From assembly GCF_055900595.2 (NCBI RefSeq), contig NZ_CM148325.1: a stretch of DNA of 64,000 bases. One strand, 5' to 3'. Positions within the stretch are counted from its first letter, which is position 1. Each line of letters starts with the position of its first letter. A program made the position numbers and the translations under genes. This document shows, piece by piece, positions 7,065-41,168 of this stretch. Under the pieces are notes generated by a model. It did not search any database. It worked only from the letters and a program-made list of their open reading frames with translations, and was not told the DNA's origin.

Positions 7065-7754
7065 TTACTCACTCTCTGCCGGTAATACTGGCATCCAGTC
7101 AATCGGTTTCTCGCCACGTTGTTCCAGCCACTGATTTGCCAGCACAAAATGATTGCAGCCAAAGAATCCACGATGTGCAGAAAGCGGCGATGGATGCGGC
7201 GCTTTCAGTACGTGATGGCGTTGCTTATCTATAATCGCTCCTTTCTTTTGCGCATGTGATCCCCACAACAAAAACACCACGCCTTCGCGGTGCTGGTTAA
7301 TCAGGCTGATGACTTTGTCGGTGAAGGTCTCCCAACCGAGGCTGGCGTGGGAATGCGCCTGACCTGCGCGAACCGTCAAGACGGTATTGAGCAGCAGAAC
7401 GCCCTGACGCGCCCAGCTTTCAAGATAACCATGATTAGGGCGGGTGAAGCCGGGAATAGTATTTTCGAGCTCTTTATACATATTCAGCAGTGACGGCGGT
7501 GTCGCAATGCCGGGGCGAACGGAAAATGCCAGACCATGCGCCTGTCCCGGTCCGTGATAAGGATCCTGACCGAGGATCACCACTTTAACGTCACCCAACT
7601 CTGTAAAGCGGAAGGCGTTAAAGACATCTTTTTGTGGTGGATAGATAGTGACGCCGGACTGCCGCTCGCTGGCGACGGTCTGAAGGGTATTAAGAAAATA
7701 GGGTTGCTGCTTCTCTTCAGCCAGCACATCATGCCAGGTTAATTCGTTAGCCAT
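7065..7754 (-). CDS. ung: Uracil-DNA glycosylase
   Basis: 229 aa; conserved GQDPYH active-site motif. Confidence 0.96.
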
Positions 7755-7884: not shown

Positions 7885-7951
7885 TTGATGTAAAACAATA
7901 AAATCCATTTGCGAGCACACTTGATGCGTGGTTTTTATTGATTTAAATCAA
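7885..7951 (+). promoter_or_regulatory. grcA promoter region with two FNR/CRP-type boxes: TTGAT-gtaa-AACAA (7885..7898) and perfect TTGAT-ttaa-ATCAA (7938..7951)
   Basis: Sequence match to FNR consensus TTGAT-N4-ATCAA; centres 53 bp apart as described for the yfiD/grcA promoter. Confidence 0.7.
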
Positions 7952-8058
7952 AGAATCAAGGGTGTTTGAGGAGTATATATACACTCAAGCAACAATGGTT
8001 TTACCAATTGGCCGCGACAGGCTAAACAAATCAAATAATTTTGCCGGGGAGGCATCAC

Positions 8059-8442
8059 ATGATTACAGGTATCCAGATTACTAAAGCTGCTAATGACGAT
8101 CTGCTGAACTCTTTCTGGCTGCTGGACAGCGAAAAAGGCGAAGCGCGTTGCATCGTTGCGAAAGCAGGTTTTGCAGAAGACGAAGTGGTTGCAGTAAGCA
8201 AACTGGGTGACATTGAATACCGTGAAGTTCCAGTAGAAGTTAAACCAGAAGTTCGCGTTGAAGGTGGTCAGCACCTGAACGTAAACGTTCTGCGTCGTGA
8301 AACTCTGGAAGATGCAGTTAAGCATCCGGAAAAATATCCGCAGCTGACCATCCGTGTATCCGGTTATGCAGTTCGCTTTAACTCTCTGACTCCGGAACAG
8401 CAGCGCGATGTTATCGCTCGTACCTTTACTGAAAGCCTGTAA
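8059..8442 (+). CDS. grcA: Autonomous glycyl radical cofactor GrcA (YfiD)
   Basis: 127 aa; C-terminal glycyl-radical motif RVSGYAV; strong similarity to PflB C-terminus. Confidence 0.95.
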
Positions 8443-29768: not shown

Positions 29769-29784
29769 ACGCAAACGGTTTCGT
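29769..29784 (+). promoter_or_regulatory. PurR operator (pur box) in the purL leader: ACGCAAACGGTTTCGT
   Basis: Close match to PurR consensus ACGCAAACGTTTGCGT, about 80 bp upstream of purL start. Confidence 0.8.
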
Positions 29785-29860: not shown

Positions 29861-32800
29861 ATGATGGAAATTCTGCGTGGTTCGCCTGCATTGTCGGCAT
29901 TCCGAATCAACAAACTGCTGGCACGTTTTCAGGCTGCCAGGCTCCCGGTTCACAATATTTACGCCGAGTATGTCCATTTTGCTGACCTCAATGCGCCGTT
30001 AAACGATGATGAGCACGCACAACTTGAACGCCTGCTGAAATATGGCCCGGCACTCGCCAGCCACGCCCCGCAAGGCAAACTCCTGCTGGTGACTCCGCGT
30101 CCTGGTACCATCTCTCCCTGGTCTTCGAAAGCGACCGATATCGCCCATAACTGCGGGCTGCAACAGGTAAACCGCCTTGAGCGCGGCGTTGCTTACTATA
30201 TAGAAGCCGGTACGCTGACCCATCAACAATGGCAGCAGGTGACCGCTGAACTGCACGACCGCATGATGGAAACGGTCTTTTCTGCTTTAGATGATGCAGA
30301 GCAGCTGTTTGCACACCATCAACCGACTCCGGTCACCAGCGTTGATTTGCTGGGGCAGGGCCGTCAGGCGCTAATCGACGCTAACCTGCGTCTTGGCCTG
30401 GCACTGGCGGAAGATGAAATTGACTATCTGCAGGATGCGTTCACAAAGCTGGGTCGTAACCCGAACGACATCGAGCTGTATATGTTCGCCCAGGCGAATT
30501 CTGAGCACTGCCGCCACAAAATTTTTAACGCCGACTGGATTATCGACGGAGAACAACAGCCGAAATCGCTGTTCAAGATGATCAAAAACACCTTCGAAAC
30601 CACGCCGGATCACGTTCTCTCGGCTTATAAAGATAACGCCGCCGTAATGGAAGGTTCTGAAGTGGGCCGCTACTTTGCTGACCACGAAACGGGCCGCTAC
30701 GATTTCCATCAGGAACCGGCGCACATTCTGATGAAAGTCGAAACCCACAACCACCCAACGGCGATTTCTCCGTGGCCGGGCGCAGCTACCGGTTCCGGCG
30801 GTGAAATTCGCGATGAAGGTGCCACCGGCCGCGGCGCGAAGCCGAAAGCTGGCCTGGTCGGTTTCTCCGTATCCAACCTGCGTATTCCTGGCTTTGAACA
30901 ACCGTGGGAAGAAGATTTCGGTAAGCCTGAGCGCATTGTCACCGCGCTGGACATCATGACAGAAGGTCCGCTGGGCGGCGCGGCATTTAACAACGAATTT
31001 GGTCGTCCGGCACTGAACGGCTACTTCCGTACCTATGAAGAAAAAGTGAACAGCCACAACGGCGAAGAGCTGCGCGGGTATCACAAACCGATCATGCTGG
31101 CGGGTGGGATCGGCAACATTCGCGCCGATCACGTACAAAAAGGTGAGATCAACGTCGGTGCGAAACTGGTCGTTCTCGGCGGCCCGGCAATGAACATCGG
31201 TCTTGGCGGCGGCGCGGCGTCTTCCATGGCGTCTGGTCAGTCTGATGCCGACCTCGACTTTGCTTCCGTACAGCGCGATAACCCGGAGATGGAGCGTCGC
31301 TGTCAGGAAGTGATCGACCGTTGCTGGCAGCTTGGTGATGCTAACCCAATTCTGTTTATCCACGACGTCGGCGCAGGCGGTCTTTCTAACGCGATGCCGG
31401 AACTGGTGAGCGACGGCGGACGCGGCGGTAAATTCGAACTGCGCGATATTCTGAGCGACGAACCGGGCATGAGCCCGCTGGAAATCTGGTGTAACGAATC
31501 CCAGGAACGCTACGTGCTGGCGGTTGCTGCCGATCAGTTACCGCTGTTTGACGAACTGTGTAAGCGTGAACGCGCGCCCTACGCGGTGATTGGTGAAGCG
31601 ACCGAAGAACTGCATCTTTCTCTGCACGATCGTCATTTTGATAATCAGCCGATCGATCTGCCGCTGGACGTCCTGCTTGGTAAAACGCCGAAGATGACCC
31701 GCGATGTGCAAACGCTGAAAGCGAAAGGCGACGCGCTGGCCCGTGAAGGGATCACCATTGCAGACGCGGTGAAACGTGTGCTGCATCTGCCGACTGTGGC
31801 GGAAAAAACCTTCCTGGTGACCATTGGCGACCGCAGCGTAACCGGTATGGTGGCGCGCGATCAGATGGTGGGGCCGTGGCAGGTGCCGGTCGCTAACTGC
31901 GCGGTCACTACCGCCAGCCTCGACAGCTACTACGGCGAAGCGATGGCAATTGGCGAACGTGCGCCGGTTGCACTGCTGGATTTCGCCGCCTCTGCCCGTC
32001 TGGCGGTCGGTGAAGCGTTAACCAATATTGCCGCAACGCAGATTGGCGATATCAAACGCATTAAACTTTCCGCCAACTGGATGGCGGCGGCAGGCCACCC
32101 TGGTGAAGATGCAGGCCTGTATGAAGCCGTTAAAGCGGTGGGCGAAGAGCTTTGTCCGGCGCTGGGCCTGACGATTCCGGTGGGTAAAGACTCCATGTCG
32201 ATGAAAACCCGCTGGCAGGAAGGTAGCGAAGAGCGCGAAATGACCTCGCCGCTTTCGCTGGTGATTTCTGCATTTGCCCGCGTGGAAGATGTACGTCACA
32301 CCATCACGCCGCAGCTTTCTACCGAAGATAACGCACTGCTGCTGATTGATTTAGGCAAAGGCAATAACGCGCTGGGCGCAACGGCGCTGGCGCAGGTTTA
32401 TCGTCAGCTTGGCGACAAACCGGCAGATGTACGCGATGTCGCGCAACTGAAAGGCTTCTATGACGCGGTTCAGGCGCTGGTAGCACAGCGTAAGCTGCTC
32501 GCGTACCACGACCGCTCTGATGGCGGCCTGCTGGTAACGCTGGCGGAAATGGCCTTTGCTGGTCATTGCGGCATTGACGCGGATATCGCCACTCTGGGTG
32601 ACGATCGCCTGGCGGCGTTGTTTAACGAAGAACTGGGTGCGGTGATTCAGGTTCGAGCCGCTGACCGTAAAGCAGTTGAAGCGGTACTGGCACAGCATGG
32701 GCTTGCTGATTGCGTCCATTATGTTGGCCAGGCGGTTTCCGGTGACCGTTTTGTGATTACCGCCAACGGGCAGACTGTATTCAGCGAAAGCCGCACTACG

Positions 32801-33748
32801 TTGCGTGTCTGGTGGGCAGAAACTACCTGGCAGATGCAGCGCCTGCGTGACAATCCGGAGTGTGCCGATCAGGAACATCAGGCGAAATCTAACGACGCCG
32901 ATCCGGGCCTGAATGTGAAACTGTCGTTTGATATCAACGAAGATGTGGCAGCACCGTATATTGCCACTGGTGCGCGTCCGAAAGTTGCCGTGCTGCGTGA
33001 GCAGGGGGTGAACTCGCATGTTGAAATGGCGGCAGCTTTCCACCGTGCAGGCTTCGATGCAATCGATGTGCATATGAGCGACCTGCTGGCTGGACGCACG
33101 GGCCTGGAGGATTTCCACGCTCTGGTAGCGTGCGGCGGTTTCTCCTACGGTGATGTGCTGGGTGCTGGTGAAGGTTGGGCGAAGTCTATCCTGTTCAATG
33201 ACCGTGTACGCGATGAGTTTGCAACCTTCTTCCACCGTCCGCAAACGCTGGCGCTGGGGGTATGTAACGGTTGCCAGATGATGTCTAACCTACGTGAACT
33301 GATCCCAGGTAGCGAGTTGTGGCCACGTTTCGTGCGTAACACCTCCGATCGCTTTGAAGCGCGTTTCAGCCTGGTAGAAGTGACACAAAGCCCGTCGCTG
33401 CTGTTGCAAGGGATGGTGGGTTCGCAGATGCCGATTGCTGTCTCTCACGGCGAAGGACGCGTGGAAGTGCGCGATGCGGCGCATCTGGCGGCACTGGAAA
33501 GCAAAGGGCTGGTGGCACTGCGCTATGTCGATAACTTCGGCAAAGTCACTGAAACCTACCCGGCTAACCCGAACGGTTCTCCGAATGGTATTACGGCGGT
33601 CACGACTGAAAATGGTCGAGTCACCATTATGATGCCGCACCCGGAACGTGTTTTCCGTACTGTCAGTAACTCCTGGCATCCGGAAAACTGGGGCGAGGAT
33701 GGCCCATGGATGCGTATTTTCCGCAATGCGCGTAAGCAGTTGGGGTAA
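29861..33748 (+). CDS. purL: Phosphoribosylformylglycinamidine synthase (FGAM synthase, large single-chain form)
   Basis: 1295 aa; C-terminal glutamine amidotransferase domain with catalytic Cys (GVCNGCQ). Confidence 0.97.
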
Positions 33749-36630: not shown

Positions 36631-37954
36631 ACCTGCGCATTTATTACTGGTCGATGACGATCCAGGATTGCTGAAACTGCTTGGTCTGCGTCTGACCAGC
36701 GAAGGTTATAGCGTGGTTACGGCGGAAAGTGGAGCTGAAGGATTGCGGATACTGAATCGTGAAAAAGTAGATTTAGTCATCAGCGATCTGCGGATGGATG
36801 AAATGGATGGTATGCAACTGTTTGCCGAAATCCAGAAAGTGCAGCCAGGTATGCCAGTAATCATCCTCACCGCGCATGGTTCCATTCCCGATGCCGTTGC
36901 CGCGACACAGCAGGGCGTGTTCAGTTTCCTCACCAAGCCTGTCGATAAAGACGCGCTGTATCAGGCAATTGACGATGCGCTGGAGCAATCAGCCCCCACT
37001 ACCGACGAACGCTGGCGCGAGGCGATTGTCACCCGCAGCCCGCTGATGCTGCGTTTGCTGGAACAGGCGAGGCTGGTGGCGCAGTCAGATGTTAGCGTTT
37101 TGATTAACGGTCAGAGCGGTACCGGGAAAGAGATTTTTGCCCAGGCGATCCACAACGCCAGCCCGCGCAACAGCAAACCGTTTATTGCTATTAACTGTGG
37201 CGCATTGCCCGAGCAATTGCTGGAGTCAGAGCTGTTTGGTCATGCGCGTGGCGCGTTTACTGGCGCTGTCAGCAATCGTGAAGGTTTATTCCAGGCGGCG
37301 GAAGGCGGTACGCTGTTTCTCGATGAGATTGGCGACATGCCCGCACCGTTGCAGGTCAAACTGCTACGCGTGTTGCAGGAGCGCAAAGTGCGCCCGCTGG
37401 GCAGCAACCGCGATATTGATATCGACGTGCGGATTATTTCCGCCACTCACCGTGACCTGCCAAAGGCGATGGCGCGCGGGGAATTCCGTGAAGATCTCTA
37501 CTATCGCCTCAACGTTGTCAGTCTGAAAATTCCGGCATTGGCGGAGCGCACAGAAGACATTCCGCTACTGGCAAACCACTTATTGCGCCAGGCGGCAGAG
37601 CGACATAAACCGTTTGTCCGCGCATTCTCCACCGATGCAATGAAACGACTGATGACCGCGAGCTGGCCGGGTAATGTGCGCCAGTTGGTCAACGTGATTG
37701 AACAGTGCGTGGCGCTAACATCATCTCCGGTGATTAGTGATGCGTTAGTCGAGCAGGCGCTGGAGGGCGAAAATACGGCTCTGCCAACCTTTGTTGAGGC
37801 GCGTAATCAGTTTGAACTCAACTACTTGCGTAAGCTGCTGCAAATCACCAAAGGGAATGTCACCCACGCGGCGAGAATGGCGGGGCGCAACCGGACAGAA
37901 TTTTATAAACTGCTTTCCCGACACGAGCTGGATGCAAACGATTTCAAGGAATGA
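36620..37954 (+). CDS. glrR: Sigma54-dependent response regulator GlrR (QseF/YfhA)
   Basis: 444 aa; receiver domain, AAA+ sigma54-interaction domain ([15 protein letters not shown]), C-terminal HTH. Confidence 0.93.
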
Positions 37955-38396: not shown

Positions 38397-39587
38397 TCAC
38401 AGCACTTTATGCGGGCCAAAGCATTCGTAATGAATGTTTTCCTGTTTCACACCCAGGTCCACTAACTGTTTCGCGGCAAACTGCATGAAGCCAACCGGGC
38501 CGCAGAGATAGAACTGCATTGTCGGATCGCTGAACGCACCTTCCAGTTTGCTCAAATCCATCAGACCTTCGCTATCAAACTGACCTTTAGCGCGATCGGC
38601 TTCGCTTGGCTGACGATACCAGGTGTGCGCGGTAAAGCGCGGCAGTGCTTGCCCCAGTTCCTTAACTTCATCGGCAAAGGCGTGAACATCGCCATTTTCT
38701 GCCGCATGGAACCAGTTCACTTGTGCGGTGTGGCCTGCTTTTGCCAGCGTGTCGAGCATTGCCAGCATTGGCGTCTGGCCGACACCGGCAGAGATTAACG
38801 TCACTGGTGTGTCATCTGCGACAGCCATAAAGAAATCACCTGCCGGAGCGACCAGTTTCACGACATCGCCAACATTGGCGTGATTGTGCAGCCAGTTGGA
38901 TACCTGCCCGCCATCTTCGCGTTTCACCGCAATACGATAGCCTTTGCCATCCGGTTTGCGAGTCAAAGAGTACTGACGAATTTCCTGATGCGGGAAACCT
39001 TCCGGCTTCAGCCAGACGCCGAGATATTGCCCCGGACGGTATTCTGCCACTGCGCCACCGTCGACCGGCTCCAGTTCGAAGCTGGTGATAAGCGCGCTGC
39101 GCGGTGTTTTAGCCACAATGCGGAAATCGCGAGTACCTTCCCAGCCACCGGCTTTGCTGGCGTTTTCGTTATAGATTTCCGCCTCGCGATTGATAAATAC
39201 ATTAGCCAGTACGCCATAGGCTTTACCCCACGCGTCCAGCACTTCCTGGCCCGGGCTGAACATTTCGTCCAGCGTCGCCAACAGGTGTTCGCCGACAATG
39301 TTGTACTGTTCCGGTTTGATCTGGAAACTGGTGTGCTTCTGGGCGATTTTTTCTACCGCTGGCAGCAGCGCAGGCAGGTTTTCAATATTACTGGCGTAGG
39401 CGGCAATAGCGTTAAACAGGGCTTCACGTTGATCGCCATTACGCTGGTTACTCATGTTAAAAATTTCTTTGAGTTCTGGGTTATGAGTAAACATACGGTC
39501 GTAGAAATGGGCGGTTAACTTTGGCCCTGTTTCCACCAGTAAAGGGATGGTGGCTTTTACTGTAGCGATGGTTTGAGCGTCAAGCAT
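38397..39587 (-). CDS. hmp: Flavohemoglobin (nitric oxide dioxygenase)
   Basis: 396 aa from Met at 39587; N-terminal globin domain, C-terminal FAD/NAD-binding reductase. Confidence 0.95.
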
Positions 39588-39615
39588 ATGGTCTTCCTTT
39601 TTTTGCATCTTAATT

Positions 39616-39636
39616 GATGTATCTCAAATGCATCTT
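39616..39636 (-). promoter_or_regulatory. NsrR operator in the hmp promoter (AAGATGCATTTGAGATACATC palindrome)
   Basis: Inverted repeat matching the NsrR 11-1-11 consensus, about 30 bp upstream of hmp start. Confidence 0.75.
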
Positions 39637-39914
39637 ATAAAAAATAGCCCTGCAATGTAAATGGTTCTTTGGTGTTTTTCAGAAAGAATGTGATGAAGTG
39701 AAAAATTTGCATCACAAACCTGAAAAGAAATCCGTTTACGGTTGCAAGCTCTTTATTCTCCAAAGCCTTGCGCAGCCTGAAGGTAATCGTTTGCGTAAAT
39801 TCCTTTGTCAAGACCTGTTATCGCACAATGATTCGGTTATACTGTTCGCCGTTGTCCAACAGGACCGCCTATAAAGGCCGAAAATTTTATTGTTAGCTGA
39901 GTCAGGAGATGCGG

Positions 39915-41168
39915 ATGTTAAAGCGTGAAATGAACATTGCCGATTATGATGCCGAACTGTGGCAGGCTATGGAGCAGGAAAAAGTACGTCAGGAAGAGCA
40001 CATCGAACTGATCGCCTCCGAAAACTACACCAGCCCGCGCGTAATGCAGGCGCAGGGGTCTCAGCTGACCAACAAATATGCTGAAGGTTATCCGGGCAAA
40101 CGCTACTACGGCGGTTGCGAGTATGTTGATATCGTTGAACAACTGGCGATCGATCGCGCGAAAGAACTGTTCGGCGCTGACTACGCTAACGTCCAGCCGC
40201 ACTCCGGCTCCCAGGCGAACTTTGCGGTGTACACCGCGCTGCTGGAACCCGGCGACACCGTTCTGGGTATGAACCTGGCGCATGGCGGTCACCTGACTCA
40301 CGGTTCTCCGGTTAACTTCTCCGGTAAACTGTACAACATCGTTCCTTACGGTATCGATGCTACCGGTCATATCGACTACGCCGATCTGGAAAAACAAGCC
40401 AAAGAACACAAGCCGAAAATGATCATCGGTGGCTTCTCTGCATATTCCGGCGTGGTTGACTGGGCGAAAATGCGTGAAATCGCTGACAGCATCGGTGCTT
40501 ACCTGTTCGTTGATATGGCGCACGTTGCGGGACTGGTCGCTGCTGGCGTCTACCCGAACCCGGTTCCTCATGCTCACGTAGTGACTACCACCACTCACAA
40601 AACCCTGGCGGGTCCGCGCGGCGGCCTGATCCTGGCGAAAGGCGGTAGCGAAGAACTGTACAAAAAACTGAACTCTGCCGTTTTCCCTGGTGGTCAGGGC
40701 GGCCCGTTGATGCACGTAATCGCTGGTAAAGCGGTTGCTCTGAAAGAAGCGATGGAACCTGAGTTCAAAACTTACCAACAGCAGGTCGCGAAAAACGCTA
40801 AAGCGATGGTAGAAGTATTCCTGGAGCGCGGCTACAAAGTGGTTTCCGGCGGTACTGATAACCACCTGTTCCTGGTTGATCTGGTTGATAAAAACCTGAC
40901 CGGTAAAGAAGCTGACGCCGCTCTGGGCCGTGCTAACATCACCGTCAACAAAAACAGCGTACCGAACGATCCGAAGAGCCCGTTTGTAACCTCCGGTATT
41001 CGCGTGGGTACTCCGGCGATTACACGTCGTGGCTTTAAAGAAGCCGAAGCGAAAGAACTGGCTGGCTGGATGTGTGACGTGCTGGACAGCATCAATGATG
41101 AAGCCGTTATCGAGCGCATCAAAGGTAAAGTTCTCGACATCTGCGCACGTTACCCGGTTTACGCATAA
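39915..41168 (+). CDS. glyA: Serine hydroxymethyltransferase
   Basis: 417 aa; PLP-lysine motif [14 protein letters not shown]. Confidence 0.97.

Follow-up and report, generated by a model that had tools for sequence, protein, structure and literature searches.

Which regulators are served by the short region between the divergent genes hmp and glyA, and whether the NO-sensitive repressor NsrR has its operator across the hmp promoter, is the question raised by this locus. We addressed it in a 64,000-nucleotide stretch of DNA, which was analysed as a whole and is referred to here as the window. Its source is the E. coli chromosome; a 901-bp query spanning the spacer between the two genes was 100% identical to several RefSeq genomes. 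Mapped by offset from the RefSeq annotation of an identical locus, the gene order is glrR-glnB-hmpA(-)-glyA(+)-yphH(-). The coding sequence of hmpA (hmp), for the NO-inducible flavohaemoprotein, occupies 38397..39587 on the minus strand with its ATG at 39587, and that of glyA, for serine hydroxymethyltransferase, occupies 39915..41168 on the plus strand with its ATG at 39915. Both assignments come from the ORF list and the RefSeq annotation, and these also bear out the divergent arrangement with a 327-bp spacer (39588..39914) that had been proposed in an earlier, sequence-only reading of this DNA. The hmpA-glyA locus was found in 5425 of 5426 complete E. coli genomes. Compared with typical E. 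coli, the spacer of this strain shows no more than three rare SNPs (39738, 39773 and 39880) and a one-T difference in the T-run of the leader near 39597, all of them outside the regulatory boxes. The exact sequence of 39730..39799 is common to just 16 of 5311 matching genomes. An Rfam search of the region returned only a sub-threshold miRNA match and hence no known RNA family or element.

NsrR is an iron-sulfur, NO-sensitive repressor of the Rrf2 family, and hmp repression depends on it (PMC2884951, PMC6950321). The same sources name as regulators of hmp NsrR strongly, as the major one, plus FNR, MetR and Fur weakly. The sequence-only reading had placed an inverted repeat matching the NsrR operator at 39616..39636, and the minus strand of this interval is AAGATGCATTTGAGATACATC, exactly as claimed. 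This 21-mer lies inside the published site, but the full operator is two bases longer. It spans 23 bp (39614..39636, minus strand) and forms an 11-1-11 imperfect inverted repeat that reads AAGATGCATTT-G-AGATACATCAA in the hmp sense. Its plus strand, TTGATGTATCTCAAATGCATCTT, is letter for letter the hmp entry in Table 4 of PMC5320621, where an NsrR ChIP-seq peak in E. coli CFT073 is indicated for it. We found no substantive evidence against the assignment, and 39614..39636 almost certainly serves the E. coli hmp (hmpA) promoter as its NsrR operator.

To score the site independently of its own entry, we used a 23-bp, palindromised matrix derived from the PMC5320621 Table 4 sites after removal of hmp and one duplicate. 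With this leave-one-out matrix, 39614..39636 ranks first of about 64,000 positions at 17.8 bits, the runner-up reaching 12.4 bits. A score of at least 17.8 bits occurred at 3 of 6.4 million positions of first-order Markov sequence, which corresponds to about 5e-7 per position, about 0.03 per 64-kb window and about 1.5e-4 per 327-bp spacer. The independent consensus gATGyAT-N5-ATrCATc, which Rodionov et al. 2005 derived by comparative genomics (PMC1274295), has a single perfect match in the window, at 39616..39634, which takes in both half-site cores; none of 100 shuffles gave one. The operator match claimed from the letters alone thus stands up to formal scanning. It is identical to the published hmp site, carries the top matrix score in the window and also satisfies the consensus.

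The description of the site as an inverted repeat requires more qualification. Its match to the NsrR motif is sound, but the repeat is imperfect, with degenerate outer positions in the right arm, and its palindromy is at chance level. In the 11-1-11 frame, 7 of 11 arm pairs are complementary, and palindromes equally good are found at 590 positions of the window, 5 of them within the spacer. No inverted repeat was detected in the spacer by a repeat finder that used a 6-base seed. We therefore dropped the idea of a significant palindrome; the significance of the site is carried by the motif match. Scored separately with the matrix, the two halves differ strongly: the left 11-mer has 15.9 bits, which is maximal, and the right 11-mer just 2.3 bits, because of deviations at three places, a G at the centre, another at position 14 and AA at the end. 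The NsrR ChIP-seq enrichment in CFT073 is 3.8-fold at hmp compared with 9.7-fold at ytfE (PMC5320621). Taken together, the 7/11 arms, the weak right 11-mer and the modest ChIP-seq peak indicate that the hmp operator may be of relatively low affinity.

The ytfE operator, AAGATGCATTTAAAATGCATCTT, is the best site in Table 4 of PMC5320621 and offers an instructive comparison. It shares with hmp the 11-1-11 layout and the left half-site AAGATGCATTT. Whereas the ytfE operator is a near-perfect palindrome (ln P of -25.1 versus -18.2 for hmp), hmp has the right arm AGATACATCAA and the central G, and this part of the site doubles as an FNR box. Against the hmp promoter of E. coli K-12 and CFT073, on the other hand, the window shows no difference in any regulatory box. 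The 23-bp NsrR sequence is identical, as are its placement upstream of hmp and the presence of glyA as divergent neighbour, and the PurR box of glyA and the spacer length are the same as in K-12. The NsrR site of the E. coli hmp promoter was reportedly described by Bodenmiller & Spiro in 2006 and by Partridge in 2009. Few divergent promoters of E. coli are as well characterised as the hmp-glyA region, and all elements confirmed here were known before. As a discovery, the finding is therefore small. Its value is that of a positive control, in which a reader of raw sequence recognised a real operator correctly.

The position of the operator relative to the hmp promoter suggests how it might act. 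On the hmp strand, the only conserved promoter-like (sigma-70-like) element is TTTACA-N16/18-TATAAGAT. The -35 hexamer TTTACA (39656..39661, minus strand) was picked up by the promoter scan and lies within an invariant footprint block, and the -10 region TATAAGAT (39632..39639, minus strand) is indicated by the promoter scan, direct reading and conservation. Read directly, the -10 is TATAAG (39639..39634) with a 16-bp spacer; the promoter scan gives TAAGAT (39637..39632) with an 18-bp spacer. Both hexamers lie in blocks without variation among 36 distinct Enterobacteriaceae spacers, and the left half-site AAGATGCATTT of the NsrR operator (39636..39626) overlaps the -10 in either reading. We infer a transcription start at about 39625..39627, which the operator would also cover. 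The earlier claim that the NsrR site sits over the hmp promoter is thus borne out by its overlap with the -10 of a conserved promoter. As the operator extends over the -10 and the likely start, this geometry fits repression by promoter occlusion. NsrR bound across both would exclude RNA polymerase from the hmp promoter. Nitrosylation of its iron-sulfur cluster by NO would then release NsrR from the DNA and allow transcription of hmp, whose product is the flavohaemoglobin that oxidises NO to nitrate.

Conservation of the site was examined in a comparative set of 91 loci, with one genome per species, anchored on the Hmp codons HFYDRMFT and hence independently of the operator. With the same leave-one-out matrix, 86 of the 91 loci showed an NsrR site scoring 17.8 bits or more upstream of hmp. 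The five loci of this set without such a site comprise four from Pseudoalteromonas and one truncated contig. Most Enterobacterales have the site between -46 and -54 from the hmp ATG (about -49), and a divergent glyA with a spacer of 302 to 363 bp is present in all but a few Enterobacterales loci. The hmp NsrR sites of other Enterobacterales (Rodionov 2005, PMC1274295) thus resemble that of E. coli in their fixed site-to-start distance and divergent glyA. Within the species, 5094 of 5418 E. coli genomes share an identical 70-bp stretch around the operator.

Several lineages depart from this layout. In Vibrio, Aliivibrio and Photobacterium, the site is found at -37 to -39 from the hmp ATG. Loci of these genera (L013, L014, L019, L078 and others) carry two tandem 23-bp NsrR-type sites between -75 and -15 from the ATG, and a divergent glyA is absent from the Vibrionaceae hmp loci. 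These tandem sites without divergent glyA set the Vibrionaceae apart from E. coli, and the other genera in general show a stronger NsrR match than E. coli does. The site is farther from the ATG in C. freundii M-21 (L037, -105), Serratia DD3 (L040, -186) and S. rubidaea (L051, -138). The spacers of these three loci are longer, at 379 to 557 bp, which would imply either insertions between operator and start codon or a different promoter layout. In Pseudoalteromonas (L006, L044, L056, L091), no NsrR-type site was detected within 500 bp upstream of hmp, the best matches scoring 2 to 7.5 bits, which suggests that hmp may have a different regulator there.

The overlap of operator and promoter also allows the NsrR match to be read as incidental, its bases being conserved merely as the hmp -10 and the initial transcribed region. 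While palindromy that is by itself at chance level and the overlap of half of the strongest half-site with TATAAGAT would suit this explanation, conservation and motif match both reach about 20 bp past the -10 hexamer. Two tandem copies of the motif in Vibrionaceae, a matrix score expected by chance about 1.5e-4 times per 327 bp and the published ChIP-seq peak for NsrR over this exact sequence (PMC5320621) all argue in the same direction, and we regard an incidental match as vanishingly improbable.

A more substantial alternative arises from a second motif embedded in the NsrR operator. The FNR-type box TTGATGTATCTCAA (39614..39627), which is not mentioned in the sequence-only reading, lies inside the promoter-distal operator half and agrees with TTGAT-N4-ATCAA at 9 of 10 positions. 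Over the whole window, matches to the FNR consensus are mildly enriched (5 versus 2.1 expected). The site could accordingly be chiefly an FNR operator just downstream of the start, with anaerobic repression by FNR and induction through inactivation of FNR by NO, which was the interpretation before 2005. Reviews name FNR as an hmp repressor (PMC2884951, PMC6950321), and Myers 2013 (PMC3688515) lists a predicted FNR site at hmp above the matrix threshold together with FNR-dependent expression, yet without an in vivo FNR ChIP-seq peak at the gene. The distribution of the box across our loci speaks against a principal role as well. Escherichia, Citrobacter and one Klebsiella locus match at 8 to 10 of 10 positions, with 10/10 in Escherichia sp. 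MOD1-EC7003 and 8 to 9 of 10 in Citrobacter and the Klebsiella locus. In most other genera the value is 3 to 7 of 10, although nearly all retain the NsrR match. Moreover, invariance is highest in the promoter-proximal NsrR half-site, a block not covered by the FNR box. Across orthologous hmp promoters, the FNR box is thus not generally conserved but good in a few lineages only, and it looks like a lineage-restricted feature. An operator serving chiefly FNR is in our judgement very unlikely; we view FNR as a further input restricted to certain lineages rather than as an alternative to NsrR. From within the promoter-distal operator half, the box would provide extra anaerobic repression of hmp on top of the repression by NsrR.

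The relation between the two motifs takes a particular form in Escherichia. Among the 86 positive loci, the weakest NsrR match is the Escherichia site, with 17.8 bits in four of five Escherichia loci, the E. coli representative among them, and in the window, compared with 21 to 31 bits in other genera. The deviating bases that weaken the right arm (G at the centre and at position 14, AA at the end) also create the FNR box. A restored hmp right arm would read AAAATACATCTT in place of the native AGATACATCAA. A further NsrR half-site-like sequence, AAGATGCAAAA, is a candidate element in the hmp leader (39601..39611, minus strand). Together with the main half-site it forms a direct repeat of TAAGATGCA, 25 bp apart, and PMC5320621 enters it for hmp as a single motif of low score. 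In our comparative set, this leader copy is present only in the Escherichia loci (L002, L030, L066, L068, L080).

We tentatively propose, while considering it the less probable outcome, that an ancestral near-symmetric operator was remodelled in Escherichia, leaving a weaker NsrR match, an FNR box that fits at 9 to 10 of 10 positions and a copy of AAGATGCA 25 bp downstream. The pattern is compatible with a lower-affinity operator and also with masking of the FNR site by NsrR. If the remodelling were functional, hmp of Escherichia would be a low-affinity, easily derepressed NsrR target with overlapping or competing occupancy by FNR and NsrR, and masking by NsrR could account for the absence of an FNR ChIP-seq peak at a good site. 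Parts of this idea have probably been discussed already in the NsrR literature. The combination of lineage-specific weakening of the NsrR match with an FNR box is only a mildly new angle, and offers a small lead on the tuning of operator strength between lineages.

No comparable site was seen for Fur: the 19-mer Fur box consensus has no match with three or fewer mismatches in the window, a result by which weak Fur regulation is neither favoured nor disfavoured.

On the glyA side of the spacer, the sequence-only reading had expected sites for PurR and MetR without locating them, and both expectations can now be tied to positions, with differing certainty. The PurR operator of glyA is AGGTAATCGTTTGCGT at 39781..39796 (plus strand). 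It equals the motif that PMC3159470 (Table 1) gives for glyA beneath a PurR ChIP-chip peak in K-12 and that was bound both with and without adenine. A 16-bp PurR matrix from which glyA and purL had been omitted scores the box at 21.6 bits, a value reached by none of 7.7 million null positions and within the range of the training sites from the pur regulon (PMC3159470). Its core AAnCGTTTGCGTAAA is invariant across genera. Judged from the conserved hexamers, the box appears to lie upstream of the core promoter elements rather than in the interval from -35 to -10. From just upstream of the glyA promoter, it would confer purine-dependent repression on glyA.

The MetR sites are less certain. Two sites with the consensus TGAAnnTnnTTCA have been placed in the hmp-glyA region (PMC5002191), and a 15-bp consensus, ATGAA-N5-TTCAT, is available (PMC4239095). 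In the window, the 13-mer consensus with at most one mismatch shows no enrichment (24 matches versus 27.5 expected); at this background frequency, MetR sites cannot be located by consensus alone. Conservation narrows the search. The longest invariant non-promoter block of the spacer, 39699..39733, holds two TGAA boxes, which fit the published placement (PMC5002191). The probable site 1, GTGAAAAATTTGCAT (39698..39712), matches ATGAA-N5-TTCAT at 8 of 10 positions, that is with two mismatches, and falls in the conserved block. The probable site 2, CTGAAAAGAAATCCG (39720..39734), is weaker, with four mismatches, and its centre is 22 bp from that of site 1. Within site 2, TGAAAAGAA is invariant across genera, and in several genera the box reads TGAAAAGAATTCC, one mismatch from the 13-bp consensus. 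The consensus match is weak: tandems equally good occur 5 times in the window versus 2.0 expected by chance, the latter being about 0.01 per 327 bp. We regard the coordinates 39698..39712 and 39720..39734 as probable, with added support from conservation and from the published placement of two sites in this spacer. A further MetR-like match at 39655, with two mismatches, overlaps the hmp -35 and was judged incidental. DNase I footprints of MetR are said to have been obtained by Lorenz & Stauffer in 1995 and Membrillo-Hernandez in 1998. MetR is a LysR-type regulator, and tandem boxes of this kind could serve both genes, through homocysteine-dependent activation of glyA and modulation of hmp.

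The glyA promoter region extends over 39805..39843 (plus strand) and contains TTGTCA (39805..39810), CCTGTTATC and TATACT (39838..39843), all of which are invariant. TATACT is the likely -10 of glyA. The promoter scan had instead combined TTGTCA, a 16-bp spacer and AATGAT (39827..39832), and we rejected this -10, as AATGAT is not conserved whereas TATACT is. In E. coli, the distance from TTGTCA to TATACT is 27 bp. The two Franconibacter loci (L046, L071) have a 10-bp deletion aligned to 39822..39831, which places TTGTCA 17 bp from the -10 (TACACT). This deletion is relevant to the choice of hexamer for the glyA -35. Downstream, a conserved glyA leader with the Shine-Dalgarno region (GAGTCAGGAGATGCGG) was recovered as a footprint at 39887..39914 (plus strand).

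The scans also returned sites elsewhere in the window. The best PurR matrix score, 22.1 bits, belongs to the purL box ACGCAAACGGTTTCGT (29769..29784), whose reverse complement ACGAAACCGTTTGCGT is the published ChIP-chip motif. It is located 77 bp upstream of the purL ORF (29861..33748, plus strand; 1295 aa) and served as an internal positive control. A weaker PurR-like box of 12.3 bits, TTGAAATCGTTTGCAT (37932..37947, minus strand), is found where glrR ends, some 70 bp upstream of glnB (38015). In the literature, glnB is named as a PurR target missed by ChIP-chip, and this box may be its PurR site. Finally, two FNR boxes, TTGATGTAAAACAA (7885..7898) and the perfect TTGATTTAAATCAA (7938..7951), lie 53 bp apart upstream of grcA/yfiD (ORF 8041..8442, plus strand), adjoining ung (7065..7754, minus strand). 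We take them to be the pair of FNR sites already known from the yfiD promoter.
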